DNA of 64,000 bases. Source: a virus. The translations under genes were made by a program, and so were the position numbers. How positions within the stretch are numbered: position 1 is the stretch's first letter; every line of letters begins with the position of its first letter. The stretch is taken from IMG/VR virus record IMGVR_UViG_3300042560_001229, positions 1 to 64,000 of that record; one strand, 5' to 3'. The notes under the pieces were generated by a model. It did no database searches and was not told where the DNA came from. It worked only from the letters and a program-made list of their open reading frames with translations. This document shows, piece by piece, positions 847-58,880 of this stretch.

Positions 847-1293
847 ATGAAGCTGAATGACCGAAACGATCTGAGAACGCTCCGCGTGGAGCTTGAAACC
901 GCCCTGCTGGATGTCCTGTCCAAGTATGACATGAGCGTGAAGCTGGGAGGCATGAAATACAGCGGCACCGGCACGGAGATGTCCGTGAAGCTGACCGTGG
1001 TGAAAGGGAACGCCGAAAAGTTCGCCAAGGCTGAGTTTGAGCGGGGCTGCGAAATGCACGCCTACCGCTTTCCGTGGTTGAAGCCCGAGCACTACCTGCT
1101 GCGTTTCTTCGAGCGCGGACACGAATATGTGTTGACTGGCGTAGGCGGCAGAGGACGATGCCCCTTTCATGTGAAACAGCTATCCAACGACAAAGGCTAC
1201 CGGGTGCCCGAATCGTGGGTGAAACGCGCTGTGGAGGCCATCCCTCCCACCATCGGACAGGACTTCCGCCCACGCCGCAAGTTGGAGCTATGA
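847..1293 (+). CDS. hypothetical protein, C-terminal RPRRKLEL tag
   Basis: 148-aa ORF, TGACTTATG junction. Confidence 0.8.
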   Translation: MKLNDRNDLRTLRVELETALLDVLSKYDMSVKLGGMKYSGTGTEMSVKLTVVKGNAEKFAKAEFERGCEMHAYRFPWLKPEHYLLRFFERGHEYVLTGVGGRGRCPFHVKQLSNDKGYRVPESWVKRAVEAIPPTIGQDFRPRRKLEL

Positions 1294-1985
1294 GCTTTCC
1301 CCACCAGAAACGACTCCGCAGGCGCGGCGCATTTGGCCCCAGCGAGTATGAGCAGCGCACCGCAACCAAAGGCACCAGTGCCTTGGCGAAACGACCGTGG
1401 TGCGACATGGGCGACTTTGTCCACTCCTTCCTACGGCGCGACGAACTGATAACACAGTTCGGTTTTGCCATCCCGAACGAGGAGGCGATCACCGCCCTTG
1501 CCCACTGCCCGCAGCCTATCGTGGAGGTAGGGGCAGGGTTGGCTTATTGGGCGTATCTGGTGAAGGAGCGGTATGGGGTGCATGTGGACTGCTACGATCT
1601 GGACATCCCGCCAACGAGCGCCAAGCATGGGACGAACGGCGGCGAGCGGCACGGCTACCACTTTGACCGGGAACCGTGGCATCCGGTGAAGGGTGGCACA
1701 CCGGAGTCCATCGGACGCAAGGAGTATCAGACGTTGCTGCTGATCTGGCCGGACTACTGTTCCCCTATGGCTCTGCAATGCCTGATGAAGTTCACCGGCA
1801 GCACGGTCGTCTATGTTGGTGAGGGAGACGGCGGCTGCACCGGAGACAACGCCTTCCACGAGGCACTGGAGAAGGAGTGGACTGCACTTGGCTACATCGA
1901 ACATCCGCAGTGGAGTGGGCTGAACGATTACATGACCATCTACCGGCGTTTGAGCGCAGACCCCACCCAACCCCTTCCCTCCTGA
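1290..1985 (+). CDS. class I SAM-dependent methyltransferase-like protein
   Basis: IVEVGAGLAYW motif I, LLLIWP, VVYVGE..GGCTG; ATGA overlap. Confidence 0.65.
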   Translation: MSFPHQKRLRRRGAFGPSEYEQRTATKGTSALAKRPWCDMGDFVHSFLRRDELITQFGFAIPNEEAITALAHCPQPIVEVGAGLAYWAYLVKERYGVHVDCYDLDIPPTSAKHGTNGGERHGYHFDREPWHPVKGGTPESIGRKEYQTLLLIWPDYCSPMALQCLMKFTGSTVVYVGEGDGGCTGDNAFHEALEKEWTALGYIEHPQWSGLNDYMTIYRRLSADPTQPLPS

Positions 1986-1992
1986 CGGCCAG

Positions 1993-2017
1993 CGATTCCT
2001 ACGCGATTCTCAGCGCA
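1993..2017 (+). repeat. Second repeat family CGATTCCTACGC(G/C)AT(T/C)CTCAGCGCA
   Basis: 23/25 match at 61824-61848; related copies at 21957-21981 and 27324-27339. Confidence 0.75.
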
Positions 2018-2085
2018 TCTGTGGCCTGCCTTTCCACCTTAAAAATCGGCCCCCAAACTATTTTGCAACAGTTGCAAAATAATCG

Positions 2086-2122
2086 TTGACGATGAATCGG
2101 TTTTGAGCCAAGGTTGACCTAT
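2086..2122 (+). promoter_or_regulatory. Conserved promoter with upstream palindrome
   Basis: TTGACG-ATGAATC, 17 bp, CAAGGT; ATG 2123. Confidence 0.85.
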
Positions 2123-3307: not shown

Positions 3308-3829
3308 ATGAAATCCACCATCGAACTCGTTGAGCAAGCCCGAGAAATCTTCCGCCGTGTCTATGAGCCGCGAGGAATGCCCGCTGAGGCCGGATGCCTG
3401 CTCTGGTCTTGCGCCGTCCTCCACACCTTACACCAGCATGGGGTGAACGGGGTGTTGCAGGCAGGCACGACGAACTGGCCGCTCCTTCCCCGGCATCTGG
3501 ATGACGGCGTTTCGGCCACGCACTTTGGTTACGTGTTCGAGGCCGAAGTCGCCAAGGTGCGGTTCGCGCAAGGCTTGCTGCCCGAAGTCCATGTGTGGGT
3601 TGTTGTCCCCGAGACTGAGACGCTCATTGACATGACCACCGGCTTCCAGCCCGCGCAGTGCCGGAAGATGATCGGCAAGGAGTTCCATCCCGAGTCGGTG
3701 CCGCCTCCCTACTTTTGGGACAAGTTTGATCGCCTCCCCGATTGGTGGCGTTACAAGGCTGACCCGGTGGCCATCGCCATGATGCACGCCTTCGTCGTTG
3801 AGTATCACGAAATGGAGGTAGCCCGATGA
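3308..3829 (+). CDS. hypothetical protein, possible transglutaminase-like C/H/D triad
   Basis: GCLLWS, HVWVV, IDMT..Q; MKST start. Confidence 0.6.
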   Translation: MKSTIELVEQAREIFRRVYEPRGMPAEAGCLLWSCAVLHTLHQHGVNGVLQAGTTNWPLLPRHLDDGVSATHFGYVFEAEVAKVRFAQGLLPEVHVWVVVPETETLIDMTTGFQPAQCRKMIGKEFHPESVPPPYFWDKFDRLPDWWRYKADPVAIAMMHAFVVEYHEMEVAR

Positions 3830-4560
3830 GTCTGCCCGCTGGAGTCGTCTTAAATCAGGAACCTTACCGTCGGGCGGTGCTGTTCTTTACCGAAGGCTCG
3901 CGTGACAAGTATTACCGCATGAGCATCATGGAGGGCAGGCACCTTGCCACGCAGCGGATGTATCTGGTGGCCGACTACGGCAGGCGTGTCGGATACCTTG
4001 GCAACTATGTGAACTCCAGCCGTGCCCACCTTTACGGTGAGGGGCCGGTGAGTTTCTCCACCCGAGACAGGCTGACCGCCGAGGGTCTGACCCGGCTGGA
4101 GGCCAAGTTCGTCAAGGGTTACACCGAAAAGAGTCACGGCTGGCCGAACACCGGAACGTGGCACTTCATCCGCGCTGAGTTCGAGCGAGCGTTGAAGATG
4201 GTGGTTGCCACTGTCCCCGGCACCACGACGACAGGCCGCACTTATCCACCGTGGAGGTTGCCTGAGATTGTCGGTGGTCAGTGGCACCGGGACGACTTCA
4301 CCGAGGAGATGCTGGCGGGCGGTTACAGGCCGCTGCTGTTGGGCGAGAAAGACACCGCCGAAGACGAATACCTTACAGGGGATTCAGGATGGGCGAGGCT
4401 TGGCGGTCTTGCCTCTGGCAATGTCGAGGCATACTGGACTCGCCGCCGCACCAAGAGGCCGCTGCCTTATGGTGTGACGTTCGTTGGTGAAGCGGTGCTA
4501 CCGGGGTTTCGTGAAATGCCCCTCCTACCAGCGAAGCGCAGGAGACTTTTGGAATTATGA
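3826..4560 (+). CDS. WGR-like domain + GYRLL-type domain protein, C-terminal KRRRLLEL tag
   Basis: FTEGSRDKYY..YGRR..KFVKGY; GGYRPLLLGE. Confidence 0.65.
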   Translation: MSLPAGVVLNQEPYRRAVLFFTEGSRDKYYRMSIMEGRHLATQRMYLVADYGRRVGYLGNYVNSSRAHLYGEGPVSFSTRDRLTAEGLTRLEAKFVKGYTEKSHGWPNTGTWHFIRAEFERALKMVVATVPGTTTTGRTYPPWRLPEIVGGQWHRDDFTEEMLAGGYRPLLLGEKDTAEDEYLTGDSGWARLGGLASGNVEAYWTRRRTKRPLPYGVTFVGEAVLPGFREMPLLPAKRRRLLEL

Positions 4561-6211: not shown

Positions 6212-6813
6212 ACTGGAAGGATGTGCCACTGCCGGAGAAGATGCTTGCGTTGCCCAAGGATGCGCGAGGGTTTTCTGTTCCCTTCATCGTTGCCTGTGAC
6301 GAGACGGGCAAGCCACAGTTCACGGTCAATGACCGGGCGAAAGTAATGCACGCCCTGACGAATGGACTGTGCGGCATTTGCGGTCAGGGGATACCCATGA
6401 ATGATGTCTGGCTGGTGGGTGGGCCGCAGAGTGCCTTCCACCCGCAAGGGGCTTACATTGACGGCCCGCTGCACGGAGACTGCGCCCGCTACGCCCTGCA
6501 AGTCTGCCCCTACTTGGCTGTGTCCAATGTGAAGTATCGCTCTGCGATTGACGCTGAACGCCTGTCGGGTCGGTTCAAGGATACGACGATTCTCATTGAC
6601 CCCACGGTTGACCCTGATCGCCCCAAGCTGTTTGCGCTGGTCAGGATTACAGGATTGAGCATGACGCCGAACGGCTACTTGGTTCCTGATCGTCCGTATC
6701 CAGATGCCGAGTATTGGAATGGCGGGCAGCGATTGGACGAGGCTGAGGCTCTGGAGGTTTTGGCTTCTCTCGGACTTACACCCTGCGTGGTGCGAAGGGG
6801 GGTCACACCATGA
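6208..6813 (+). CDS. conserved phage Cys-motif protein
   Basis: LPKDARGFSVPF, CGICG, GPLHGDCARYALQVCPYL. Confidence 0.75.
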   Translation: MNWKDVPLPEKMLALPKDARGFSVPFIVACDETGKPQFTVNDRAKVMHALTNGLCGICGQGIPMNDVWLVGGPQSAFHPQGAYIDGPLHGDCARYALQVCPYLAVSNVKYRSAIDAERLSGRFKDTTILIDPTVDPDRPKLFALVRITGLSMTPNGYLVPDRPYPDAEYWNGGQRLDEAEALEVLASLGLTPCVVRRGVTP

Positions 6814-7433
6814 GAGTCGGCCCCGAGCATCCCGTCACTGTCACTCAGGATGGCGTAACCCGCTCTTACATTCTGGATGACTGGCAGAGAACTGAAACTC
6901 GTGGTGGTGGATGGCCGACCATCAGCTTGACTCTGCGCGAAGTGCCGAATGCAACCGCTAACCCTCACCATGAAGGTGAAGGTGAATGCCGACCTATCGA
7001 ACCGGGTGCTGGCTACCGCTGGCTGCTTGTGTCGGAACTGGATAACGCCCCAGCCGGGACGGAGTATTACGACAGTGGCGGGGAGTGGACTGCGAACGGT
7101 GAGTGGCCGAATATCCGCTCCACGAATTTCTGGTATCGGGTGCCTCTCGCAACGGATTACTGGATTCCTTCATCGCCCAGCCCCGCGACGTGCCCGCCGC
7201 TGCCCGATGGCTATCGGTTGCCGTTGCTGTCGGAACCGGATGTGGTGACACGCAAAATGATGTGGTGGTCTTGCTCCAGCGAAGCATGGGAGCGTAGTGA
7301 TAGGTCAACACTAGGCGCTAGTTACCGTCATTACTCTACCATATGGCATTGCGTGCCCATCCTTCCCTGTGAGATGACTGCCCCCGCGCCGGAACTTCCG
7401 GCTCGACGGACGAGACGAAAACTGGAATTTTGA
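6810..7433 (+). CDS. protein with two GYRLL-type domains, C-terminal RRKLEF tag
   Basis: GAGYRWLLVSE and PDGYRLPLLSE. Confidence 0.75.
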   Translation: MRVGPEHPVTVTQDGVTRSYILDDWQRTETRGGGWPTISLTLREVPNATANPHHEGEGECRPIEPGAGYRWLLVSELDNAPAGTEYYDSGGEWTANGEWPNIRSTNFWYRVPLATDYWIPSSPSPATCPPLPDGYRLPLLSEPDVVTRKMMWWSCSSEAWERSDRSTLGASYRHYSTIWHCVPILPCEMTAPAPELPARRTRRKLEF

Positions 7434-7449: not shown

Positions 7450-7800
7450 ATGAATCCAACGGCCATACATGCCATCCGTGAACTGCGAGCACTGGCCGCG
7501 CAACGTGCCAACACCGCAGCAAGCATCTTTCGCATCTTCCGAACCGTGTCGGTAGTGTTCGGCATCATCAGCGTCGTCTATCTGCATCTGATTATTCTGA
7601 TGCTTCCAAGTTGGTGGGCCTTCCCCTCTTTTCTGCTCTGGCTGTTCCTTTACCCCATCTGCCCCGGCCTGTGGGTGGAGGCGCGCATACGGCGGGACAA
7701 GTGGATGCGGATGCGGCAGGACTGTTTGGACGCAGCCACGGATATTGAGAAAGACTGGACACAGGACAACGAAGACCATGATTACGATTACAATGAGTGA
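7450..7800 (+). CDS. membrane protein
   Basis: Two hydrophobic segments. Confidence 0.65.
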   Translation: MNPTAIHAIRELRALAAQRANTAASIFRIFRTVSVVFGIISVVYLHLIILMLPSWWAFPSFLLWLFLYPICPGLWVEARIRRDKWMRMRQDCLDAATDIEKDWTQDNEDHDYDYNE

Positions 7801-8056
7801 ACCGATTTACATTCTGCGAAAAAGGGACTGTGCGCTGTTTGTGCCTTCCGCCAAGGATGGGAAGGCGACCCTGCCTTCGATGTTTGCCACCCGCGACAGT
7901 CACGGCAACTTCTACTTCCGCCAGATCGTCTGGCAACCCCGGCGCTGGTGGCAGCTTCGCGGACGCTGGGTGGAAAACGGGGAAACTTGGACAGTGGCCG
8001 ATGTGGACGGCTGGGAAGTCCTGATCGGTGAAGACCTGCGGAGGTTTGAACGATGA
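7793..8056 (+). CDS. hypothetical protein
   Basis: Overlapping-junction ORF. Confidence 0.6.
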   Translation: MSEPIYILRKRDCALFVPSAKDGKATLPSMFATRDSHGNFYFRQIVWQPRRWWQLRGRWVENGETWTVADVDGWEVLIGEDLRRFER

Positions 8057-8367
8057 CTGAGCACGGAGCCTGCATTCGCTGCCACCGCCCCGCCGTGTGG
8101 GTCTGCTACCATCGCAAGGACACCAAGACAGTGGTGGCCCGCCTGTGTCACGGGCACCGGCAATTCGCGCCCAAGAGAACGACGATGGAGAAACTGACTC
8201 CACTCCCACCCGAACCCGATCTGGAGGAGCGTCCCACGCCCGAGGAAATCGTCCATCAGGAAATCGAGCGATGCTTGGCGGAAATAAACGCCAATCGTCT
8301 CCCACCCATCCAACCCCAAGCCCCTCGTCCTCCGACGAATCCACCAGCCTCCTATGAGCAACACTGA
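8053..8367 (+). CDS. hypothetical Cys/His, Pro-rich protein
   Basis: ATGA overlap; CIRC..C..CHGH. Confidence 0.55.
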   Translation: MTEHGACIRCHRPAVWVCYHRKDTKTVVARLCHGHRQFAPKRTTMEKLTPLPPEPDLEERPTPEEIVHQEIERCLAEINANRLPPIQPQAPRPPTNPPASYEQH

Positions 8368-8554
8368 CCAGCTTCACGATGAATCACCCATGCCGTTTGG
8401 CAAGTATAAGGGAACCCCTATGCAGGATGTGCCCGCCTCCTACCTTCACTGGCTGTGGACGAATGGGGTGAAAAGCGAGAACAGTCCGGTGGCCAATTAC
8501 ATCCGCAATAACATTGTCTCGCTGCAACAGGAACACCCTGACGGCATCTGGTGA
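8354..8554 (+). CDS. DUF3820/ExoX C-terminal-like small protein
   Basis: MPFGKYKGTPMQDVPASYLHWL signature. Confidence 0.8.
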   Translation: MSNTDQLHDESPMPFGKYKGTPMQDVPASYLHWLWTNGVKSENSPVANYIRNNIVSLQQEHPDGIW

Positions 8555-8585
8555 GCCGGTTTGCAACTGTTGCAAAATTCTCTGT

Positions 8586-8620
8586 TTGACCACGAAACGG
8601 TTCTAAGCCAAGCTCCCGAC
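8586..8620 (+). promoter_or_regulatory. Conserved promoter with upstream palindrome
   Basis: TTGACC-ACGAAAC, 17 bp, CAAGCT; ATG 8621. Confidence 0.8.
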
Positions 8621-8830
8621 ATGCACTGCCAGCACTGCCAACGAGACATGACCATTTGCATCTGCGACGATGCCGACGCCCGCCTTGAGAATCTGGCGAA
8701 ATGCCCCAACCTCGACCCTGCGTGGATTGCCCGCATTCAAGCCCAGCGGTTCTTGGGCAGATTTCAGATCGCGGCTGACCGCGAGAGGGCCAAAGCCGAA
8801 ACCCAAAAGATCGAACCTCCGAAACCATGA
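8621..8830 (+). CDS. small Cys-rich hypothetical protein
   Basis: CQHC..CIC. Confidence 0.65.
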   Translation: MHCQHCQRDMTICICDDADARLENLAKCPNLDPAWIARIQAQRFLGRFQIAADRERAKAETQKIEPPKP

Positions 8831-8960
8831 AAGGCCCGATACTGAAAGCGGCACTGATCGCCGCAGCCGTCACCACCCTTATATGGGGCTTGGCTATTGC
8901 AGTCGCCCTTTTGCTGGCGTGCAGATGCACCCCTGACCCTTGGCCCTGAACCACGAAACT

Positions 8961-9320
8961 ATGAGCACACCCTACCTAGACAACGAGCAGGAATTTCCTG
9001 ACCGCCTCAACGAGATGCGCGACATCATTCACCAATGGGCCAAGGACAAGGGCTGGTGGGACAAACCGAGGAACAAGTTCGAGTTGATCGCGCTGATGCA
9101 CTCCGAGTTGAGCGAGGCGGTGGAGTATCTCCGAAAGAAGGAGCATCCCGCGATGGATGACAAGGTGCCCGAGTTGACCGGAGAGGCGGCAGAGATGGCC
9201 GACACGATCATCCGCATCCTCGATTACTGCGGTGCCTACGGCATTGACATCGGCAACGCCATCCGGCTGAAACACGCCTTCAACCAAAGCCGCCCCTATC
9301 GGCACGGAAAACTCGCCTGA
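8961..9320 (+). CDS. MazG-like NTP pyrophosphohydrolase
   Basis: IALMHSELSEAVE..EMADTIIRILD, N.SRPYRHGK. Confidence 0.88.
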   Translation: MSTPYLDNEQEFPDRLNEMRDIIHQWAKDKGWWDKPRNKFELIALMHSELSEAVEYLRKKEHPAMDDKVPELTGEAAEMADTIIRILDYCGAYGIDIGNAIRLKHAFNQSRPYRHGKLA

Positions 9321-9323
9321 TTT

Positions 9324-9545
9324 ATGAGCACCGAAGCAAAAGCAACCGACCAGCCACACCCGGCCCCGCCCCTTGACCCGAACGTGCTGGCGAAAGCCCA
9401 CGCCGATGCCATCACCGCGCTGTGTGGTGCCCTGCCCTCCCTGCTCAACTTTAAGGTAGGCTACGGCAACGACGCGGCTGCGAAGTCGGCGTTCGAGCGT
9501 ATCGAAAATAGCCACCAATACCTGATGAACCTGACCTTCCGATGA
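9324..9545 (+). CDS. hypothetical protein
   Basis: 73-aa ORF in operon. Confidence 0.6.
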   Translation: MSTEAKATDQPHPAPPLDPNVLAKAHADAITALCGALPSLLNFKVGYGNDAAAKSAFERIENSHQYLMNLTFR

Positions 9546-14345: not shown

Positions 14346-15355
14346 TGAAGGTGCTGGTTGTAGGCAGTGGAATTAGCGGACTGGTCGCGGCCCGTTTGAT
14401 GCGAGATGCTGGGCATGATGTGGTCGTGCTGGAGACTCGTGAACATATCGGCGGGAACTGCTACGACTACAAGGATGCGCCTACTGGAGTGACGGTTCAC
14501 AAGTATGGCCCGCATTGTCTGCACACCAATTCGGATACGGTGGCTTTGTTCCTCCAACGCTTCGGGAAGTTCAACGATTTCAGTCCAGAAGTGTGGGGAC
14601 GCATAGGGGATGGGCGATTGGTGCCCGTTCCGTTCAACCTGCACGGTGCGGATTTGGTGGGGCCAAAGACACCCGAGGAGATTAGGGACATGATCTTCGT
14701 GGACTACTCTGAGAAGATGTGGGGCAGGCCGTGGGAGCAGATACCGGAGAACATCCGCAAGCGGTTGCCGGTTATGAGGGAAAGCCATGAACTGCGCTTC
14801 CACCAAACCAAGTATGTCGGAGTGCCGGTGGACGGATGGACGAGTCTGCTAAGTGCTATGGCCGAGGGGGTGACTGTCCATCTGAATACTATCTTGGGGG
14901 AATGGATTTCGTGGAGCAGGAATTGGGCAGACCTGACCATTTACACGGGAAAGCTGGATGCGTTTTACGGTTATCGGCACGGCAGGCTCCCTTATCGGAG
15001 TTTGGACATCAAGATTGAGCGCACCACGCGCCAGCGGCATTTCCAGATTAACGAATGCAACAGTTTCAATAAATGGACGCGGGCGTGTGACCAAGGATGG
15101 TGGTATGGGAAGCATGAGGATGCCACCATTGTCACGCGGGAGTATTCAGTTGACCACACACCGGAGAATGAGCCGTATTACCCGATGAGGCCGTTTAGCG
15201 GTGCAACGGAGATGTGGGAGAAGTATGATGCGCTGGCGAAGCATGAGTCGCGGACAGTATTCCTTGGGAGGCTGGCGAACTACACCTACATAGACATGGG
15301 TGTGGCTGTTGGAACGGTGTTGGGAAAAGTTGGGAAAATTACTGGAGTAGCATGA
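14345..15355 (+). CDS. glf: UDP-galactopyranose mutase 1
   Basis: GSGISG FAD motif, IGGNCYD, HKYGPH, LPYRSL, YYP, GRLANYTYIDM. Confidence 0.9.
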   Translation: MKVLVVGSGISGLVAARLMRDAGHDVVVLETREHIGGNCYDYKDAPTGVTVHKYGPHCLHTNSDTVALFLQRFGKFNDFSPEVWGRIGDGRLVPVPFNLHGADLVGPKTPEEIRDMIFVDYSEKMWGRPWEQIPENIRKRLPVMRESHELRFHQTKYVGVPVDGWTSLLSAMAEGVTVHLNTILGEWISWSRNWADLTIYTGKLDAFYGYRHGRLPYRSLDIKIERTTRQRHFQINECNSFNKWTRACDQGWWYGKHEDATIVTREYSVDHTPENEPYYPMRPFSGATEMWEKYDALAKHESRTVFLGRLANYTYIDMGVAVGTVLGKVGKITGVA

Positions 15356-16380
15356 AGGTGCTGGTTGTGGGTGCCGGGATAAGTGGGGCGACAGTGGCGG
15401 CAAGGTTGCGGCAGTCGCGGCACGCCGTAACGGTCGTGGACTCGCGCTCGGTGGTAGGAGGGAACTGCCATGATTATCGGGATGACGTAACCGGAGTAAT
15501 GGTGCATAAGTATGGGCCGCATGTGTTTCACACCAAGCAGGTTGCGGTGTGGAATTTTCTCCAAGACTACACGGAGTTTGATCGTCTGGACTTGAAGATC
15601 GTGGCTGAGTTGCAGGACAGGAGGGTAGTGCCTATTCCTTACAATGACACCACGCGGAGGATTGTCGGTGACTGGACGGAGGAGGACATCCTGCGGGAGA
15701 TTGTGGTGCCGTATTCGGAGAAGATGTGGGGGTGTCCGTTTGCCGAGATTCCGAAATCCATCACCAACCGCGTGCCCAAGCCAAGGGTCGGTAATGACGA
15801 CAGATGGCATCAGGACACGTTGCAGGGTGTGCCGAGGCATGGCTACACGCAAATGGTGGAGAGTATGTTGGAGGGGTGTGATGTGCTGGTGGGCGTTGAC
15901 GGGGACTACTGGAGACGCATCCGCGACGACTTCGATCTGGTGGTCTATACCGGCAAGCTGGATGACTACTTCCAGAGCATCCACGGTGCGCTGCCCTATC
16001 GTTCGCTGAACATTGTCTCGGAGGTGAAGACATGGCGTCTCCCTACCATGCAGATGAATGCCTGCAACACTCGCAACCCGTTCACCCGGCAGATAGATCA
16101 CGGCCACTGGTATCCGTATCGCAGCAGTGTCTCGAAGTGGACGACGATCATTTCGACGGAGACGCCCTGCGCTCATGTGCCGGGTGAAAATGAAGCGTTC
16201 TACCCAATGGCGGCGTTTGCTGGGGTGGAGGAGTTGGCCGGAAAGTATCGGGCAATGGCCGAGGCTGAATCACGCACGCTGTTTGTGGGAAGGCTTGCAA
16301 CTTACACGTATCTGGATATGGATGTTGCGGTCGGCATCGCCCTCAAGACTGCTGAGAGACTGCTGAACCTACCTATATGA
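15352..16380 (+). CDS. glf: UDP-galactopyranose mutase 2
   Basis: GAGISG, GGNCHD, HKYGPHVFHT, LPYRSL, GRLATYTYLDMD. Confidence 0.92.
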   Translation: MKVLVVGAGISGATVAARLRQSRHAVTVVDSRSVVGGNCHDYRDDVTGVMVHKYGPHVFHTKQVAVWNFLQDYTEFDRLDLKIVAELQDRRVVPIPYNDTTRRIVGDWTEEDILREIVVPYSEKMWGCPFAEIPKSITNRVPKPRVGNDDRWHQDTLQGVPRHGYTQMVESMLEGCDVLVGVDGDYWRRIRDDFDLVVYTGKLDDYFQSIHGALPYRSLNIVSEVKTWRLPTMQMNACNTRNPFTRQIDHGHWYPYRSSVSKWTTIISTETPCAHVPGENEAFYPMAAFAGVEELAGKYRAMAEAESRTLFVGRLATYTYLDMDVAVGIALKTAERLLNLPI

Positions 16381-16889
16381 CCACACGCATCCGCACCAAG
16401 AAGCCAGCCGCCCCGAAGATGAAGCTCGTCCCTGTTGACACGATGGGGCGCAGTCGGGAGCGGGACACCGAACGCACCGCCCGCAACAAGGAGATTTTCC
16501 TCAGCAAGCTGAGGGATGCGCTGGGCATTGTGAAAGCCGCCTGCGATGCCACCGGGATTCATCGGACAACCTACTATTGGTGGATGACGCATGACCCGGT
16601 GTTCAAGAAGGCTGCGGATGATCTGATTGAGGAGCGCATTGACGTGGCCGAGGCCGCGCTGGTGAAGTCCATCAAGGAGGGGCAGCCTGCTGCGATTATC
16701 TTCTTCCTCAAGACCAAGGCGAAGCACCGGGGCTACGTGGAGCGCATGGAGCACGTCGGCACGGCAGAGGCTCCCATCGTGGTGCATCATGGTGTGGACA
16801 TGCAGTGGTTGAATGAGGAACTGCCCAAGGAGAAGCTGGCTGGCATCCTTGGAAAACTCCACTCGGCCAATGGTCGCTCTGAGCAGTGA
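16377..16889 (+). CDS. terS: terminase small subunit
   Basis: HTH GIVKAAC..GIHRTTYYWW..DPVF, AIIFFLKTKAKHRGYVER; directly upstream of TerL. Confidence 0.82.
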   Translation: MTTRIRTKKPAAPKMKLVPVDTMGRSRERDTERTARNKEIFLSKLRDALGIVKAACDATGIHRTTYYWWMTHDPVFKKAADDLIEERIDVAEAALVKSIKEGQPAAIIFFLKTKAKHRGYVERMEHVGTAEAPIVVHHGVDMQWLNEELPKEKLAGILGKLHSANGRSEQ

Positions 16890-24649: not shown

Positions 24650-24652
24650 CTT

Positions 24653-39952: not shown

Positions 39953-40253
39953 GGCACTCAAAACAGGATTAGCGGCACTGGCCGAACTGACCAAGGAACT
40001 GCGCGAGCAGAAACTCAAAGAGTCGGGGATACCGCCGTGGGTTTCGGTGCTGGTAACTATCATGGTTCCGACGATTGGGCTGATCTTGTGGTTCGGGAAG
40101 CTGGACTCGCGGATGCAGAATTTAGATCAGGCCAGCACGACTGCTCACAGGCGACTGGATGCCAGTGATCTCGTCATCAGAGAAAATGCCTCCAAGACCT
40201 CCCGCAGGTTGCGCGTGATTGAAAGAAAGCTGGACTTGCCGGATGGGGAATGA
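39939..40253 (+). CDS. single-TM membrane protein (lysis cassette)
   Basis: One hydrophobic helix plus coiled coil. Confidence 0.6.
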   Translation: MSEDEALKTGLAALAELTKELREQKLKESGIPPWVSVLVTIMVPTIGLILWFGKLDSRMQNLDQASTTAHRRLDASDLVIRENASKTSRRLRVIERKLDLPDGE

Positions 40254-40995: not shown

Positions 40996-41015
40996 TGACC
41001 GCGAAACACTGACCT

Positions 41016-41162
41016 ATGAAACCCATCCTGCTACTCATCGCCGCCGTCCTTTGCATCGGTTGCGCCGCAAAGCGCGAACACTGGACGCAACGCCCGCCGA
41101 CCGGCCCAGCGACGGAGCGCACGGTGGACGAGAAAGGCAACCCTTCTTTCGGAACCAAGTAA
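41016..41162 (+). CDS. small lipoprotein (48 aa, not in ORF track)
   Basis: MKPILLLIAAVLCIGC signal. Confidence 0.55.
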   Translation: MKPILLLIAAVLCIGCAAKREHWTQRPPTGPATERTVDEKGNPSFGTK

Positions 41163-41177
41163 CCAGAAAACCAACCC

Positions 41178-41534
41178 ATGAAAAAACTCATCAATCGTTT
41201 CGGACTTCCCGGAGTCCTCTTTACTGCCTGCATCGGCCTGTGGCTTCTGACCAGCATCTTCGCGGAGGACTTTCAAGCCAGCGTCGGCCCCGGCTTCCTC
41301 GCCCGCATCCCGACCAAGTTGGCGGTGCTGGCGGTCATTCTGGCATCGCTGAGGTTGGTCATTAAGTTCGCCTTCCCTTCCATTTATAGGTTCACGGATA
41401 CGGAGGGCGGCAAGGTCGTTTCTGAGTTTGCGACTGCATGGCGTTCCCTCGAATCGAAACACAAAGTATGGATAAGCGTCATCACCTACCTCATCGCCTT
41501 GCTTGCACTCTCGCAGGCATTTCTCTCCTCTTAG
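41178..41534 (+). CDS. holin-like 3-TM protein
   Basis: Three hydrophobic segments, upstream of endolysin. Confidence 0.6.
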   Translation: MKKLINRFGLPGVLFTACIGLWLLTSIFAEDFQASVGPGFLARIPTKLAVLAVILASLRLVIKFAFPSIYRFTDTEGGKVVSEFATAWRSLESKHKVWISVITYLIALLALSQAFLSS

Positions 41535-42354: not shown

Positions 42355-44040
42355 ATGAAACTTACCCGCGATCAGAAAATTCGGCTCAAGGCACTTCTCT
42401 CCAAGGATGCGAAGTCCCTGACCGCCGACGAAACGACCGAACTCAACACCCTCACTGCGGCTGCAAAGGCTGCGAATTGGGACGCCGCCACCGACCCCAT
42501 CGAAGATGAGGACGAGAAGGGGCTGACCGATGACGAAGTGAAGGGCATCGTGGTGGACGCGCTCAAGGGCATCGGCCTCGACGCTGAAACTGTCACCGCC
42601 ATCAAGGACGGCCTCAAAGCCTCCGGCAAGTCGCTCACTGCCGAGGACGTGTCCACTGCCATCCAGAAGCATCTCGGCGGCAACGCCGTTGACCAGAAGG
42701 CTCTGACCGACGCCGTGACCAAGGCGGTCAGCGCGCAGAAGGGTCTGACCGAAGCCGATCTGACCAAGGCTCTGGAGAACTTCTCCAAGAACCTCAAATC
42801 GCCCTCGCGTCACGAGTTCCCGGTCAACTCCGGCGAAGCCTCCTTCCCCATCGAGTCCCGCGCTGGCAACCTGACCGTTGGCCAGAAGCAGCTTCTCAAT
42901 ATCTGCATGATGCACGTTGGCGAGTCGGCCATTCTTTCCGGCAAGTCGGTTCGTCCGAAGTCCGAGAATGATGGCATCACCGCCGAGCAGTTGGCGCAGG
43001 CTTGCCGCAACGGTGAGTTCGTCAGCAAGACCATCCGCGCTGAGATGCTCAATGGTCGCAAGGCCATCACTGCTGGTGGTTCCGGCTCCGGTGCCGAACT
43101 GGTGAACACCGATCTGTCGAGCGATCTGCAAACCCGCCTCTATTTGGAGTCGGCGGTTGCAGCGGAGTTCGTCGGTCAGGAAATCCAGATGCCGACCAAT
43201 CCGTTCCAGCTTCCGATGACCACGACTCGTCCGTTCTTCCGTATCGGTGACGAGACTGGCTCGGTGCCCACGGCATCCACTCCGGCGACGACTCGCCCGA
43301 CCCTCACGGCTGGCAAGCTGATCGGCATGTCCGAATACAGCTACGAGGCTGAGGAGGACGCGATCATCGCCATCCTGCCCATGCTGCAAGAGCAGTTGGG
43401 TTCGGCTGCGGCTGACGCCCTCGAAGGTGCCCTTATCAATGGTGACACCGGCACCCACATGGACGGCGACATCGAAGCTGTCTCCGGTCATTCGTCCAAG
43501 CTGTTCAAGGGCTTCCGCAGCCTCGCCTTGGACGCTGGTGGCATCTGCACTGTGGACATCTCCGCTGGTGGTATCAGCACCGACAACATCGGTTCCATGC
43601 GTAAGAACATGGGCAAGTATGGCATCAAGCCGCGTGACCTTATCCTCATTGCCGGGCCGAAGGGCTACAACGATCTGGTGCAACTCGCGGAGACACTGAC
43701 GTTCCAGAATGTCGGCACCGGCTCGCTGGCTCGCATCCTGACTGGTGACGCGCCTTCGCTGTTCGGTATGCGTATCATCACTTCGGCGCAGTGCCGCGAG
43801 GATTTGAATGCTGCCGGTGTTGATGAAGTCGCTGGCGTTGCTGACCGGGGCAGCATCCTCATCGTCCACAAACCGAGCTTCCTGCTCGGCGTGCGCCGGG
43901 GCTTCACCGTCGAAGTGGACACTGACAAGCGGACGCAGATGAACTCTGTCATCGCCAGCTTCCGCCGCGCCTTCACTCCGAAGGAGACTCCTTCGACCAC
44001 TGAGCCGATGGTGATTCTCGGATTCAAGCATGTGGCCTAA
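42355..44040 (+). CDS. major capsid protein (HK97 fold) with N-terminal scaffold
   Basis: Helical N-terminus, RK|AITAGG..ELV, ALINGD..FKG; strong codon bias; terminator downstream. Confidence 0.9.
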   Translation: MKLTRDQKIRLKALLSKDAKSLTADETTELNTLTAAAKAANWDAATDPIEDEDEKGLTDDEVKGIVVDALKGIGLDAETVTAIKDGLKASGKSLTAEDVSTAIQKHLGGNAVDQKALTDAVTKAVSAQKGLTEADLTKALENFSKNLKSPSRHEFPVNSGEASFPIESRAGNLTVGQKQLLNICMMHVGESAILSGKSVRPKSENDGITAEQLAQACRNGEFVSKTIRAEMLNGRKAITAGGSGSGAELVNTDLSSDLQTRLYLESAVAAEFVGQEIQMPTNPFQLPMTTTRPFFRIGDETGSVPTASTPATTRPTLTAGKLIGMSEYSYEAEEDAIIAILPMLQEQLGSAAADALEGALINGDTGTHMDGDIEAVSGHSSKLFKGFRSLALDAGGICTVDISAGGISTDNIGSMRKNMGKYGIKPRDLILIAGPKGYNDLVQLAETLTFQNVGTGSLARILTGDAPSLFGMRIITSAQCREDLNAAGVDEVAGVADRGSILIVHKPSFLLGVRRGFTVEVDTDKRTQMNSVIASFRRAFTPKETPSTTEPMVILGFKHVA

Positions 44041-53069: not shown

Positions 53070-53692
53070 ATCCGATTCTCGAAATGTCCAAGCAAGTTGC
53101 CTGCCCCAAGTGCGGCGGAATCATGGGCAGGATTACCGGAGCGGAGAAGCAGGGCGACCGTAGTGAAGTAGCCTGCCCGCACTGTGGGTGGAGTGGAACA
53201 GCGGAAGTCGTCTCGGAGCGGCTGGAGGTTTTCGAGTGGGGCTTTGACGGCGGTGCCCGCACGGTCATCTGGAACGTGGCCAAGATGCGCCGCTTCCTAC
53301 TCAAGCACGCGGAGAAGATTCCCGTCCATGAAGTGCCGTGGATGCTGGCCGAGAAATGGCTGGAGATGAACGACTTCTCCCCTACCGATGCTGACCCACC
53401 ATCCGTGGCTGGGGACACGCCGCTGATCGTCATTGAGCATCCCTCGGCCATCGCGGAAGTCCGCGAGCATTTTGGACTCCTGCCCATTGATGGCTGGCAC
53501 CGGATGTTCGACGCGGTAAAGGCGAAGCGAAACCTGCGGGCGTGGATTTGCAAGACCGCGCTGGAGCAGAAGTTTCGGATGCTGGACATCGTGCATGTGG
53601 ACAACGGCGAGGGTGCTTTTGCGACGGAGACGCCCACGAACACGCAACTGGAAACGTGGGACAGGCAGGAACCCATTCTGCACCGACCATGA
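53066..53692 (+). CDS. zinc ribbon + ParB/Srx-like domain protein
   Basis: CPKC, CPHC; PLIVI..IDGWHR. Confidence 0.6.
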   Translation: MNPILEMSKQVACPKCGGIMGRITGAEKQGDRSEVACPHCGWSGTAEVVSERLEVFEWGFDGGARTVIWNVAKMRRFLLKHAEKIPVHEVPWMLAEKWLEMNDFSPTDADPPSVAGDTPLIVIEHPSAIAEVREHFGLLPIDGWHRMFDAVKAKRNLRAWICKTALEQKFRMLDIVHVDNGEGAFATETPTNTQLETWDRQEPILHRP

Positions 53693-53961
53693 GCAACTAC
53701 GTTTCCCGAGCATGGCTGCAATCCGTGGCCGCAGAGTTCCGCATTCAGATGAGCGGGCTGGAGACGAAGAAGGAACTGACCGCAGCGCGGAAGATCATGG
53801 AGTCCTTCATGGCCTGCTGCTCTTGGCGGAATCCACGGTTCAGTAAGGAGAAGTTTCGAGAGGCGTCCGATTATGATCGCCCTCCGGTCAAGCGAAAGCG
53901 CACCCGGCGACCCTCCACCATTACTCAAGATCGCAAGCCCCGGCGCATTCTGGAAATTTGA
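53689..53961 (+). CDS. hypothetical protein, C-terminal KPRRILEI tag
   Basis: NPRFSKEKFREA; stop lies in palindrome. Confidence 0.7.
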   Translation: MSNYVSRAWLQSVAAEFRIQMSGLETKKELTAARKIMESFMACCSWRNPRFSKEKFREASDYDRPPVKRKRTRRPSTITQDRKPRRILEI

Positions 53962-54038: not shown

Positions 54039-54494
54039 ATGCCTTACCGACCTAACGCCCACAATCCAAGTAACGTCCCGCTGGAGCACTGGCAGCAACC
54101 CGGCTGGCGGCTGATGGACGCCGATGAAGTCGGGAGTCAGTTCACCACCCCGCTGCCCTTCACCCATCGCTGGAGTTCTCTCCGACAAAAATGGATGCGG
54201 CGTCGTCACAAGACCGAAATGTGGACAGCCTCCTCTCGGAATAACTCGTATCTCACGAAGCTGTCCCGCAACCGCATCCGCGCCCTGCGTGGTCTGCCCC
54301 GCGAGCACTTCCCACCGGATGTGCCGCCACGCCCCAGCACGTCCCTTGCACACTTGACCATCCCTGCGCCGACGATAGTGCCACCGCATACTCCACCATC
54401 GCCAGCGTTTCCGCATGTGCCTACGCCTGCGCCTCCACCGGAACCCGAGCCACCACTGCAACGCCGGAAACGCATCCGCAAGCTGGAGTGGTAA
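54039..54494 (+). CDS. GYRLL-type domain protein, Pro-rich, C-terminal RIRKLEW tag
   Basis: HNPSNV..PGWRLMDADEVG..YLTK..RALRGLPRE matches 20621. Confidence 0.75.
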   Translation: MPYRPNAHNPSNVPLEHWQQPGWRLMDADEVGSQFTTPLPFTHRWSSLRQKWMRRRHKTEMWTASSRNNSYLTKLSRNRIRALRGLPREHFPPDVPPRPSTSLAHLTIPAPTIVPPHTPPSPAFPHVPTPAPPPEPEPPLQRRKRIRKLEW

Positions 54495-54540: not shown

Positions 54541-55263
54541 ATGAGCAGACCATCCATCCAAACCAAGAAAGGCTACGATATGTTTGAAGTATCGTCAGCA
54601 TTGCAGAAGTCCATCCGCCGAGGCATGGAGAAAGAAGCCCTGTATTGGGCGCACGAGTTGGTGCAGTCCAACTACCATAACTACCTTTGGAAGCGGCTGG
54701 CCATCGTCGCGGTGGAGGACATCGGCCCTGCCGACCCTGATGCCATCGTGCGGGTCATGGCCATGAAGCAGGCGTTTTACGACGAGAAGGAGAACAAGGG
54801 TGGTGGCACCCTGTTTTACGTGTCGGCGGTGATGCTGATGTGCCGTTCGCACAAGTCGCGCCTGTGGGATTGGGCAACGTGCAGCATGCTGGCTTCCCAC
54901 AATCGTCGGGCCGAGGACATTCCCGACTTCGCCATTGATAAGCACACGCGCAGGGGCAAGATGATGGGTAGGGGACGCGATCACTTTTTGAAGGAGGGCA
55001 CCAAGCTGCATCCTCACAAGACCCAACCCGGCGAGGAGGAGTTGAAGCAGGAAACCATGCTGCTGTGGGATGACAAGTCCGAGGCCGAGCACGCCGCCCT
55101 TCCTCACAATCACAAAGATCGCGCCAAGGGTTCGGTGCCCACCGACTCTGATGAAGGAGTCACCGGACGCTTCCCTATCGGGGCGTCTGATGAAGGCCCA
55201 AGGGTGCGGACGAAGAAACGCCGCCGCACCGCCGCCGAGGCTGAACTGGACTTCGGCAAATGA
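54541..55263 (+). CDS. RarA/MgsA C-terminal-domain protein lacking the ATPase
   Basis: SALQKSIRRG..ALYW..RL..AVEDIG.ADP; no Walker A. Confidence 0.8.
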   Translation: MSRPSIQTKKGYDMFEVSSALQKSIRRGMEKEALYWAHELVQSNYHNYLWKRLAIVAVEDIGPADPDAIVRVMAMKQAFYDEKENKGGGTLFYVSAVMLMCRSHKSRLWDWATCSMLASHNRRAEDIPDFAIDKHTRRGKMMGRGRDHFLKEGTKLHPHKTQPGEEELKQETMLLWDDKSEAEHAALPHNHKDRAKGSVPTDSDEGVTGRFPIGASDEGPRVRTKKRRRTAAEAELDFGK

Positions 55264-56001: not shown

Positions 56002-56346
56002 ATGAGCAAATACACCCCGATCAGTGAAGACCAAATGGATGCCGTATTTCAGCCCGCAAAGGGCTGGACGAAGACCGCCACCCAAAACGGGCACGGCGAG
56101 TTCGTGTATCAGTATCGCACCAACTTCAACCCGGCCTTCGTCGTGAAGGTCTATTCGTCCGTGTCGGCCAGCCGTCAGGTCAGCCGCAAGGTGGGTCTGG
56201 ATGCCATCCGGGTCTGCGCGGTGAACACTGTGACCGACCGTGGCCTTATCAAATCCGCCCGCATCCACCGCACCGCTGGCTGGGAAGCCCGCGTGCGGGA
56301 GCGCGTCCTCGCCACCCTCACCGCCCTTAAAGCCCGCCGCGCATGA
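56002..56346 (+). CDS. conserved phage hypothetical protein
   Basis: VKVYSS..SR.VG.DAIRV..RIHRT.GW. Confidence 0.75.
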   Translation: MSKYTPISEDQMDAVFQPAKGWTKTATQNGHGEFVYQYRTNFNPAFVVKVYSSVSASRQVSRKVGLDAIRVCAVNTVTDRGLIKSARIHRTAGWEARVRERVLATLTALKARRA

Positions 56347-56474
56347 AAGACGCAATCTCCAAGCAAGTCGGCCCGCCCTACTCCACCAGCCGCTCGTTCG
56401 AGAAGGCCATGAAGAAGCGCACCCATAAGAAACGCCGTCAGGAAGGCCGCAAAGCCTGCACGAAAAATCTCTGA

Positions 56475-56548
56475 TTGACTACGAATCAGTCAGCAGCTAC
56501 CTTTCCACTTCACCGCAGTTACAACCGCAAACCATAGAAATCGAAGAT
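56475..56548 (+). promoter_or_regulatory. Conserved promoter + leader shared with 59880
   Basis: TTGACT-ACGAATCAGTCA, TACCTT; leader TTCACCGCAGTTACAACC. Confidence 0.8.
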
Positions 56549-58177
56549 ATGAGCAAACCGCAGATTACATCGGCTCGACAGAGCTACATTGACCAGCTTG
56601 ACCTGCTCTCGGCAGCAGCCGTGGGTGTCGTGCTGACTCGCACCCGCGAACCGCACCGGGCCGAGGAAGCCATCAAGGAGTGGACGTTCACGAAGAAGCG
56701 TTCCTTCAAAAGCTGGAACGCCGTGCGCGGCTGGAAGGAGTCCAAGCCCGACATGCGTGCCACCGTGCCCCCGCCTGACAAGGTGACGGACTTCTACCTC
56801 GCCCTCCAGAAGATCGCTGATGTCGCCGGGAACGGTGCCGCAGCGTGGCAGGACATCACGCTTGTCGCCCACTACCCGCATTGGAATCTGGCCAAGTCTC
56901 CGGCGCAGATGCAGTTGCTCAAGGAATACAGCCGCGACTTCACGGAGACGAAGCAACGGCTCGTCCTGCTCGTGCCCGAGGCATTCGTCCTCCCGCCCGA
57001 GTTGCAGAACGACATCGCCGTGCTCGACTTCGGCCTCCCCTACCGGGACGAGTTGCGCGAGATTTACGATAACGTGATGGATGCGTCCAAGGAAGTCAGC
57101 GGGCACTCGGCACCCTATAACGAGGACGAGATTGGCACGCTGCTCGGTTCCGGTGCGGGCATGACCGAGGCCGAGTTTGAAATGGCTCTGAGCAAGGCGA
57201 TTCTCACCCATAAGGAGAAGTGGCCGAAGGTGCCGGTGAAGGACATGAACCGGGTGCTGCTCGAAGCGAAGACCGATGTGGTCAAGCGTTCGGAGATTCT
57301 CGAACTCATGGACATCGTGGATATGAAGGAAGTCGGCGGTCTGGACTTGGCGAAGGATTGGATTGCCAAGCGCAAGCGTTGCTTCACTCAGGAGGCCACC
57401 GACTTCGGAGTTGACCGTCCCAAGGGCATCGCCGCCATCGGGCCTCCCGGCACCGGCAAGAGCCTGTTCGCCAAGGCACTGGCTGGCCTGCTCTCAGTCC
57501 CTCTTATCAAGTTCGATGTGAGCAAGGTGTTCGGCTCGCTGGTGGGGCAGACGGAGACGAAAACGCATTCCGCCCTCATGCAATGCGATGCGATGGCCCC
57601 ATGCGTGGTGCTCATTGACGAAGTGGATAAGGCGGGCATTGACCCGAGGCAGGGCGGCGGTGACTCCGGCACCAGCAAACGGGTCATCGGGAAAATCCTG
57701 ACGCACATGCAGGAGAGCAAAGCACCGATCTTTTGGGTGCTCACTGCCAACCGCGTGGATGGGCTTCCGCCCGAGTTGCTCCGCAAGGGACGACTGGACG
57801 AAGTGTTCGCCATTCTTCCGCCGAACAAGGTGGAGCGCATGGAAATCGTTAAGATTCACCTTCGCAAGCGCAAGCAAGACCCGAGCAAGATGAAGGACTT
57901 GTCCTTGGTCGTGGACGCCAGCGAGGGCTTCGTCTCTGCGGAACTGGAAGGTGCCGTCAAGGACGCTGTGATTGAGGCGTTCACGGAGGGCACGGAAGTC
58001 ACCGGGGCCATGATCGCGGAACAGTTGAAGGGCATGAAGCCCATCAGCGTGGCCTTCGCCGACGACTTTAATGCGATGAAGGAGTGGGCTGCCAATAACG
58101 CACGCATGGCCAGCACGCAGGACGAAGTGGACGAGACTGTGCAATTCCGTCCCCGGCGTCGTAGGATGGAGCAGTAA
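56549..58177 (+). CDS. Ycf46-like AAA+ ATPase
   Basis: VGGLD..K.W, GPPGTGKS, IDEVDK, TAN..LPPELLRKGRLDE; degenerate N-terminal AAA. Confidence 0.9.
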   Translation: MSKPQITSARQSYIDQLDLLSAAAVGVVLTRTREPHRAEEAIKEWTFTKKRSFKSWNAVRGWKESKPDMRATVPPPDKVTDFYLALQKIADVAGNGAAAWQDITLVAHYPHWNLAKSPAQMQLLKEYSRDFTETKQRLVLLVPEAFVLPPELQNDIAVLDFGLPYRDELREIYDNVMDASKEVSGHSAPYNEDEIGTLLGSGAGMTEAEFEMALSKAILTHKEKWPKVPVKDMNRVLLEAKTDVVKRSEILELMDIVDMKEVGGLDLAKDWIAKRKRCFTQEATDFGVDRPKGIAAIGPPGTGKSLFAKALAGLLSVPLIKFDVSKVFGSLVGQTETKTHSALMQCDAMAPCVVLIDEVDKAGIDPRQGGGDSGTSKRVIGKILTHMQESKAPIFWVLTANRVDGLPPELLRKGRLDEVFAILPPNKVERMEIVKIHLRKRKQDPSKMKDLSLVVDASEGFVSAELEGAVKDAVIEAFTEGTEVTGAMIAEQLKGMKPISVAFADDFNAMKEWAANNARMASTQDEVDETVQFRPRRRRMEQ

Positions 58178-58256
58178 CAGTCGCCACAAATGACCACCAC
58201 GTTGCGAATGACCCTCTACCCATACCAATCCACCAGAATGAAAGGAGCAGCCCACC

Positions 58257-58880
58257 ATGCCACTGATTAGCACGATGACCGGAAGCGAAACCGTAGCCGA
58301 TGGCTTTGCCAAGGTGTTCGCCTTCCATGTAACCCGCGAGGCTGAGACTTTCATCGGCCAAGCAGCCAAGACGGGGGAGAAGGTTAGGGCGGTTGGCAGT
58401 CCCGTCAGGGAAAGCGCCGTGGCTGGCATCCGTCAGGAGATAGGAGGGTCTTGGGTGATGCAGTCGTTCGAGGTTGAGGACGATGAAATCATCAAGGTGT
58501 TTGCCCAGCGCAGGAACGCATGGAACAAGCTGATCGTGGCCGCGCAGCTTCTCCTGCTATGCCGCACCACCGGCCCGCTGACCCGCATCACCATCCCTCT
58601 ACTCAACCGTCCCGGCAAGAGCCGGTTCACGGAGGCGGTGATGCAGGGCCGGTTTGAAGTCGTCACCCCGCAGGAGGCGTTTGAGCGACATGGCATCACC
58701 GTCCCGCCGCACTTCATGCGGTTCTACCATCCGAGTTCGCAGCAGTCGGTGTTCAACGTCACGCAAGTCGAAGCGGCCAGTTCGGTGAAGCAGAAGATCG
58801 TGGCCACCATCACCAAGGCCGATGACGGAGCCACCGTGGTTGTCCGTTCGGTGAAACGTCGGAGGGCATTCGAGCTATGA
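58257..58880 (+). CDS. hypothetical protein, C-terminal KRRRAFEL tag
   Basis: 207-aa ORF. Confidence 0.75.
   Translation: MPLISTMTGSETVADGFAKVFAFHVTREAETFIGQAAKTGEKVRAVGSPVRESAVAGIRQEIGGSWVMQSFEVEDDEIIKVFAQRRNAWNKLIVAAQLLLLCRTTGPLTRITIPLLNRPGKSRFTEAVMQGRFEVVTPQEAFERHGITVPPHFMRFYHPSSQQSVFNVTQVEAASSVKQKIVATITKADDGATVVVRSVKRRRAFEL

Follow-up and report, generated by a model that had tools for sequence, protein, structure and literature searches.

The record IMGVR_UViG_3300042560_001229 is a phage genome in a single contig of 81,219 bp, and its initial 64,000 bases form the stretch analyzed here (the window). Nine of the ~122 predicted proteins of this phage end in the same short peptide tag, a basic run followed by [LFMI]-E-[LFIWM], and eight of the nine are encoded within the window. 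One of the tagged proteins lies directly downstream of a Ycf46-like AAA+ ATPase and belongs to a family of ~210 amino acids (aa) that carries the same tail in many other phages. We consider the chances slightly better than even that the tag serves as a short linear motif that docks its bearers on a site within the Ycf46-like (Cdc48/VAT-type) AAA+/DUF1257/DUF2997 module encoded by this phage.

A peptide shared by nine protein ends

The eight C-termini listed in a first-pass annotation of the window, together with the ATPase end RRRRMEQ, were all found exactly as quoted. The ninth tagged protein (genome positions 64032-64580, end RMRRLEFT) lies just past the window, directly upstream of DnaB. 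In the following list, GYRLL stands for a 55- to 65-residue repeat of the form 'GYRLL..DE..W..W..YR', and scores in bits come from a scoring matrix derived solely from the 210-aa family tails of other phages.

847-1293, + strand: 148-aa ORFan, end RPRRKLEL (17.1 bits); the next gene starts at 1290 (ATGA overlap)
3826-4560, + strand: 244-aa protein with one GYRLL repeat, end KRRRLLEL (16.9 bits)
6810-7433, + strand: 207-aa protein with two GYRLL repeats and a Pro-rich linker, end RTRRKLEF (13.8 bits); the stop codon sits within the palindrome TTTGAAACTGTTGCAAA
20621-21214, + strand: 197-aa protein with two GYRLL repeats, end RLRRLEF
25064-25432, + strand: 122-aa ORFan, end RKRNLEIL (the motif plus one residue)
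53689-53961, + strand: 90-aa ORFan, end KPRRILEI (15.6 bits); the stop lies within a palindrome/promoter cassette
54039-54494, + strand: 151-aa protein with one GYRLL repeat and a Pro-rich linker of ~60 aa, end RIRKLEW
58257-58880, + strand: 207-aa beta-rich partner of the ATPase, end KRRRAFEL; it starts 80 nt after the ATPase gene
39939-40253, + strand: possible weak member, 104 aa, with ERKLDL followed by PDGE at the end (7.2 bits at offset 4)

Nine gene ends match the tag, where the rate at internal positions predicts 0.04 (Poisson p = 2.4e-19); the internal positions amount to 24,783 residues and hold two matches. The tag is absent from all 1,427 non-gene open reading frame (ORF) ends and from all 4,053 ORF ends taken from distant capsid relatives. 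It had been asked at the outset whether the tag is as frequent as the background at GC-rich ORF ends, and the comparison returned a large excess instead. The codons of the tag differ among copies (GAG or GAA for Glu; CTG, TTG or CTC for Leu; six codons for Arg), so that the conserved object is the peptide and not a DNA repeat. Selection on the tag thus acts at the peptide level.

The matrix gives the tags of this phage 7 to 17 bits, against 6.0 bits for the 99.9th percentile of internal positions, and an R occupies position -5 in all nine. The core of the tag reads R(-5)-x-hydrophobic(-3)-[D/E](-2)-hydrophobic(-1), with more Arg or Lys ahead of it, on a flexible and often Pro-rich linker. The Pro-rich linker had been described before, and it is indeed present in most copies. 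The beta-clamp motif (QL[SD]LF or QLxLxL) is not matched, as no Gln precedes the hydrophobic residues in the nine tags and the family tails conserve R at that place. Tagging by ssrA/tmRNA, in which a tmRNA adds a tag with an Ala-rich hydrophobic end, was ruled out: the present tags are encoded in each ORF, and ARAGORN and Rfam find no tmRNA in the window.

The bodies that carry the tag had been called early effectors, and four of them mutually unrelated. As the bodies are ORFans, a role as early effectors is no more than a proposal. Four are unrelated to one another and to the rest, and the other five (beginning at 3826, 6810, 20621, 54039 and 64032) are paralogues that share the GYRLL repeat, which apart from one weak match in the related phage G001 (IMG/VR 3300010399_000004, an 87.7-kb phage with a capsid identity of 51%) is confined to them. 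None of the ORFan or GYRLL bodies matches a Pfam or PHROG family, and a homologue search with 20621-21214 recovered only itself and nothing outside the genome. The contigs from four lake-water runs are identical fragments of the same phage and are therefore uninformative about selection acting on the tag. The ORF that ends at 53961 most likely starts at the ATG at 53689, which overlaps the upstream stop as ATGA, and not at 53542 as listed; the product is then 90 aa and not 139 aa. Positions 54541-55263 encode a 240-aa protein that is an MgsA_C-like domain (PF12002) alone, without AAA; its end, KKRRR..AELDFGK, may represent a remote version of the tail (0.1 bits).

A tenth bearer of the motif is encoded at genome positions 69825-70256, downstream of Pol A. 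Here the motif is N-terminal (M-KTRTRRKLDM, 14.7 bits), and this is the sole strong match to the matrix in the genome that is not C-terminal. The N-terminal motif is kept in three phages, as RTRRKLDM in this phage, PARRAINT (..KPARRAINT..) in G001 and RTARAVNL (M-PRTARAVNL..) in Rhizobium phage L338C, and each copy fits the tail flavor of its own genome. The conservation of this copy implies that the C-terminal carboxylate is not required. Judged from these sequences, the motif behaves as a position-independent short linear motif at a free end.

The Ycf46-like module and its tailed partner

The tagged protein at 58257-58880 belongs to a gene module whose other members in the window are the following.

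56549-58177, + strand: Ycf46-like AAA+ ATPase with an N-domain of ~270 aa and a single classical-clade AAA domain, end RPRRRRMEQ
59962-60402, + strand: DUF1257 (Ycf35-like) protein, candidate receptor component (PF06868, E = 4.9e-5, 23.9 bits against a cut-off of 22.2)
60435-60632, + strand: 65-aa DUF2997-like protein, candidate receptor component (hhalign against cellular DUF2997, 97.8%, E = 1.1e-12)
60636-61007, + strand: 123-aa conserved module member (phrog_38408)

The ATPase (Pfam AAA, 2.4e-27; phrog_8638, 3e-141) matches cellular Ycf46-like proteins of many phyla full length, over residues ~10-535 and at 30-36% identity. Its AAA domain is closest to VAT/Cdc48/p97 D2 (PDB VAT, 8e-87), and the NCBIfam matches to CDC48/FtsH/PAN are all under the cut-off. 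For the N-domain, no relative was found in the PDB and no CDC48_N-type domain by Pfam. The DUF1257 protein has orthologues in L338C and in Aeromonas phage HJ05, and the product of 60435-60632 has no Pfam match at E ≤ 0.01.

A member of the 210-aa family is encoded directly downstream of the ATPase in 14 of the 14 loci examined (the window, G001, Rhizobium L338C, Aeromonas HJ05, Agrobacterium JP1, Rhodobacter RcMenchie, Pseudomonas SM1 and seven IMG/VR contigs). These two genes are usually followed by DUF1257, the DUF2997-like protein of ~65 aa and a protein of ~120 aa (phrog_38408). No conserved protease partner is found in the phage module. In G001, the orthologous ATPase gene (64700-67180) encodes 826 aa within an open frame of 838 aa. 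This ATPase (loci L082 and L083) carries an insertion of ~270 aa exactly at Walker A (query junction 301/302), which is probably an intein.

The tail is a property of the 210-aa family as a whole. Homologues of 58257-58880 at 88%, 53% and 50% identity end in KRRRAFEL, RRRSLDL and RRRNLDL, and a profile search with the family among 1.84 billion representatives recovered 408 members. Tails were read in 151 sequences (150 of the profile-search matches and one further homologue), 94 of which end exactly in hydrophobic-x-hydrophobic; most of the others have the motif plus one to three residues. The consensus of the 94 tails is R-R-R-R at -8 to -5, A/S at -4, L/I at -3, D/E at -2 and L/I/V at -1, with R at -5 in 90 of 94 and D/E at -2 in 66 of 94. 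Since the matrix built from these family tails recovers the tags of this phage, and since all of the tags have R(-5), the tag can be read as the ancient tail of the 210-aa family copied onto other proteins. By this sequence evidence, 58257-58880 would be the ancestral bearer.

An AlphaFold2 model of 58257-58880 built from a 144-sequence alignment has a beta-rich body with three short helices (predicted local distance difference test score, pLDDT, 96.4; predicted template modeling score 0.90); an earlier model from only five sequences was weak (pLDDT 54). The final seven residues have no secondary structure in the better model and a lower confidence, which fits a free peptide. No known fold was recovered for the modeled body: Foldseek against the PDB gave a best E of 0.016, the highest Z from VIA-align against 48,161 chains was 4.8, and nothing came from a PDB profile search. 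Novelty of the predicted fold does not follow from this. In BFVD, only uncharacterized family members match the model (template modeling scores 0.78-0.79), the SM1 protein gp027 among them.

The ATPases are tailed as well. In phages, their ends include KRAGMSLDS, RRGMNMD.., RRAIRTQG, NRAVDLSFKD and SRAVDLSDL. Cellular full-length homologues occur in Chloroflexi, Kofleriaceae (Myxococcota), Actinobacteria, Planctomycetes and Cyanobacteria; they end in GERKLEL-COOH in five genomes including Kofleriaceae, in GDRKIEL and GERELEL in two more, and elsewhere in RRARALDI-COOH, VRLELS/A or QFVPIQLEL plus a few residues. The neighbors of cellular ATPases are WD40/HEAT proteins, lid-less Hsp70s, DUF1257, DUF2997, an eCIS-core/M91-like peptidase and pentapeptide proteins. 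In six cellular loci (L203, L206, L218, L219, L210 and L215), ATPase neighbors carry conserved ends of their own: GEFDIILD on the WD40/HEAT protein (~887 aa) and PVV[KR]LT on the lid-less Hsp70 (~529 aa), with Kofleriaceae proteins of ~200-390 aa ending in RFSLLE[FL]D.

In other phages with the module, the tail is again multiplied. For these counts, which cover whole genomes, a looser definition was used: R-x-hydrophobic-x-hydrophobic no more than 4 residues from the end, with at least 2 basic residues.

This phage: 10 observed, 1.16 expected (p 4.2e-07)
G005: 12 observed, 0.58 expected (p 1.9e-12)
G006: 9 observed, 0.87 expected (p 3.5e-07)
L338C: 7 observed, 1.27 expected (p 0.00035)
G004: 5 observed, 1.02 expected (p 0.004)
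G001: 4 observed, 0.84 expected (p 0.011)
HJ05: 3 observed, 0.58 expected (p 0.021)
G003: 2 observed, 0.62 expected (p 0.13)

The ten of this phage include an apparent chance match at 15352-16380 (ERLLNL followed by PI). In control viral loci, 0.7-1.5% of proteins have such a tail. Most bearers in these other phages are ORFans too, and the only families that keep the tail across phages are the ATPase, its neighbor and the 69825 family.

Each genome has its own flavor of tail: L-E-[LF] in this phage, KRA-h-x-L (where h is hydrophobic) in nearly all tails of G005, h-[SND]-L-D(D) in L338C, and I-T-L or L-N-L in G001. With homologous pairs removed, tails of different genomes have 1.06 identities in 5 variable positions and tails of the same genome 1.68 (permutation p = 3e-4). 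Such concerted, genome-specific drift would be expected if the receptor evolves together with the phage, and it does not suit a universally conserved host hub.

Tail-bearing homologues lie at 40630-41376 of G006 (L195:630-1376, - strand; end RKRRAIVL) and at 34548-34958 of G005 (end LRRAIHL). The G006 bearer carries a BRCT domain at its N-terminus, a hint that some clients may act in DNA replication or repair. In G002, a partial relative (IMG/VR 3300029183_000025), the large terminase at 7757-9376 ends in TRRRRLKLA, which is tail-like; the G001 terminase ends in PQKLLYG.

A proposed docking site in the module and other explanations

The peptide is common to the ATPase, its obligatory neighbor and a changing accessory set. 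The tails also co-vary within genomes, sit on flexible linkers and belong to a Cdc48-type ATPase. For these reasons we favor a single binding site within the module. The tails would all bind one site, either in the ATPase N-domain or on a DUF1257/DUF2997 platform, and the accessory proteins, of which the same peptide marks eight to ten in this phage, would be attached to the unfoldase in the role of adaptors, regulators or clients, in competition with the tail of the ATPase itself. The five-member GYRLL paralogue family could then be a diversified set of adaptors.

Several findings weigh against docking inside the module. The tail RRRRMEQ of the window ATPase is a degenerate copy that scores 4.1 bits, and the partner in Pseudomonas phage SM1 ends in KVRTPRRR, with the hydrophobic part missing. 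Tail enrichment is weak in G003 and HJ05, and in seven IMG/VR loci no excess of tails stands out within 10 kb on either side of the ATPase (13 of 810 ORFs against 55 of 5,061). The 210-aa family is absent from the cellular ATPase loci examined. Finally, the gene calls are the output of a simple home-made script.

A portable signal that acts through the Ycf46-like module was among the first proposals for the tag. It has gained from the comparison, as the tag equals the tail of the neighbor family, resembles the tails of the ATPases and is multiplied in other phages with the module. The further proposal of an undescribed phage system holds in part. The tail is not specific to phages, since cellular ATPases carry it. 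Full-text literature searches on Ycf46, DUF1257 and DUF2997 brought up no description of the tail or of the phage module, and the conflict-system paper of Kaur et al. 2020 does not mention DUF1257 or the module.

A bolder form of docking inside the module is that it serves as a programmable hub, in which diversifying tail-tagged adaptors, namely the GYRLL paralogues and other ORFans, each bind and deliver a different host or phage target to the phage Cdc48-like unfoldase via one docking site, and in which the same tail code organizes the cellular Ycf46/Ycf35 systems. We hold this only tentatively, at about one chance in four. If true, it would provide a prokaryotic-virus counterpart of p97 with its many cofactors, and it would also bear on the function of cellular Ycf46/Ycf35 systems, an old plastid-genome question.

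Five other explanations for the tails were considered. The one that survives best, although we think it unlikely, is that they are substrate signals (degrons or threading tags), such that the unfoldase grips the tail and unfolds or dismantles its bearer, for instance to time its activity. The ATPase falls in an unfoldase clade, the tail is terminal, flexible and basic, and genome-specific flavors fit recognition within the module. Yet the ATPase itself is tailed in many genomes, which fits docking better than self-degradation, and no protease partner is conserved in the phage module. This explanation and docking would differ only in the events after binding.

Alternatively, the tails may address a host hub or protease such as ClpX or HslV, with the resemblance to the ATPase tails resulting from a shared host factor. 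ClpX C-motif 2 (for example, MuA RRKKAI) and the HslU tail (..SRFIL) both combine a basic run with a hydrophobic end, as the tag does. However, the flavor varies between phages and is coherent in each, the same tail is found on ATPases of Chloroflexi, Myxococcota, Actinobacteria, Planctomycetes and Cyanobacteria, and across phages only the ATPase, its neighbor and the 69825 family keep it. The N-terminal copies also speak against recognition of a C-terminal carboxylate. We therefore find this explanation improbable, and the host hub that the first-pass annotation had named as a possible partner is weakened both by the genome-specific flavors and by the tails on cellular ATPases of distant phyla.

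There might also be no common protein receptor, the tail being an Arg-rich nucleic-acid- or membrane-binding end on proteins of the replication region. Runs of three to four Arg are characteristic of proteins that bind nucleic acids, the module stands at the head of the replication block, before DnaB and Pol A, and one G006 bearer has a BRCT domain. This leaves unexplained the strict R(-5) (90 of 94), the hydrophobic-[DE]-hydrophobic end and the genome flavors, and cellular tails such as QFVPIQLEL are nearly without a basic run, so we rate it a little lower still.

We regard as very unlikely that the tail is a capsid-targeting or virion-delivery signal, in the manner of the HK97 protease tail or encapsulin cargo peptides, through which tagged proteins would be loaded into proheads and injected. 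In its favor, the interval from the terminase to the portal gene contains two tagged genes, the L338C prohead protease has a tail-like end (HRFSLGD), and the capsid protein has a fused N-terminal part of ~250 aa; against this, the same tail is on cellular ATPases in loci without capsids, the prohead protease of the window ends in HRKHLRAWIR, which is not the tag, and the conserved bearers are located in the replication block.

That the tag is a by-product of DNA signals, whether a Shine-Dalgarno sequence, ATGA coupling to the following gene or the palindrome, is scarcely credible. Four tags end in xTA-TGA with an overlapping ATG and two stops lie in TTTGAAACTGTTGCAAA, which partly constrains the last residue. 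Against this, the R, L and E codons vary freely, an overlapping start is missing from five of the nine tags and a palindrome from most, RRRSLDL and RRRNLDL are kept in homologues at 50% identity, and the peptide persists in hundreds of family members. Codon diversity and conservation of the protein sequence in distant homologues led us to reject all three of these causes.

If the tails dock inside the module, the nearest known parallels are the following. Cofactors of p97 use an Arg-rich VCP-binding motif (VBM), EhRRRRLxhh, and a VCP-interacting motif (VIM), which bind a cleft of the N-domain (PMC5389986). As with the tag (RRRR-a-L-x-h), a short Arg-rich motif followed by Leu-x-hydrophobic is found on unrelated proteins, and the cofactors compete for one site on a Cdc48-type AAA+ protein; the AAA domain here is itself closest to VAT/Cdc48/p97 D2. 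The differences are that VBM is helical and can be internal, whereas the motif here is terminal, has an acidic residue at -2 and is also on the ATPase. In addition, Pfam finds no CDC48_N (double-psi-barrel) N-domain here.

HbYX/GQYL tails (PAN/Rpt, archaeal Cdc48, PA200, Mpa, Bpa) resemble the present case in that an ATPase C-terminus and unrelated partners share a receptor-plugging tail. They differ in that the family tails here have D/E at -2 and never a conserved Tyr, and in that HbYX needs a free C-terminus, whereas N-terminal copies occur here. No 20S proteasome gene is present among the annotated phage proteins. The XB tail of SspB (..LRVVK) docks on the ClpX N-domain, where a flexible linker and a short basic/hydrophobic C-terminal peptide tether the adaptor to the unfoldase. 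Unlike that system, the phage module has a different ATPase family, no ClpP partner and D/E at -2 in the consensus. With no Tyr(-2), no detectable CDC48_N and no proteasome, the tag does not appear to be a member of VBM/VIM, SspB XB or HbYX/GQYL. The Ycf46/Ycf35/DUF2997 set of cyanobacteria and plastids shares with the phage module the long-N-domain AAA+ protein, DUF1257 and DUF2997; in the phage version, the 210-aa tailed partner and numerous tagged accessory proteins come in addition.

Ycf46, Ycf35 (DUF1257) and DUF2997 have long been orphan families; they occur in cyanobacteria, plastids, many bacteria and phages. A short transferable peptide on the ATPase, its partner and about ten accessory proteins provides an experimental handle on this orphan module, and the module is present in cultured phages (Rhizobium L338C, Aeromonas HJ05, Pseudomonas SM1/PaMx31, Rhodobacter RcMenchie and Agrobacterium JP1). 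If the tail does recruit adaptors to a Cdc48-like unfoldase, bacteria and phages would have an analogue of p97 cofactor biology, and the ORFan accessory genes of module phages would gain roles.

Genome context and further observations

The genome has a GC content of ~0.58, with nearly all genes on the + strand, and the same phage is present in several lake-water metagenomes. No nucleotide relative was found by blastn in the GenBank phage collection, and no relative turned up when viral contigs were searched with an alignment (A1) or when metagenomes were scanned with A1 and with DnaB; a search of the ESM Atlas gave no usable match. ARAGORN and Rfam (gathering thresholds) detect no tRNA, tmRNA or other family in the window, the region 24652-25037 included. 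The packaging and head genes of the window are as follows.

16813-18321: large terminase, C-terminus KVQKLLFA
27430-28734: portal
Head-morphogenesis block: MuF-like head protein, 1,165 aa
35713-36711: S78 prohead protease, C-terminus HRKHLRAWIR
42355-44040: HK97-type capsid protein with a fused N-terminal part of ~250 aa

The palindrome TTTGCAAC[AT]GTTGCAAA occurs genome-wide, with ~35 sites in the window (for example, at 285, 2065, 5511, 18457, 22042, 42200, 52544, 53960 and 55945). A subset of the sites is followed 8-10 nt on by TTGAC.., which gives them the look of a promoter cassette, and the variant TTTGAAACTGTTGCAAA contains the stop codon of the preceding gene. By our reading, no two of the nine C-terminally tagged genes share a cassette-delimited unit, and the tail and capsid units contain none of them.

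The head-morphogenesis block also contains a topoisomerase IB gene (34033-35496), between the MuF-like and prohead protease genes. The ATPase module opens the replication gene block, upstream of DnaB and Pol A; beyond the window, the genome encodes DnaB, a uracil-DNA glycosylase (UDG)-like domain fused to Pol A, and a helicase. In the family A DNA polymerase (genome positions 66149-69055), the UDG-superfamily domain (PF03167, residues 17-157) is N-terminal to the 3'-5' exonuclease.

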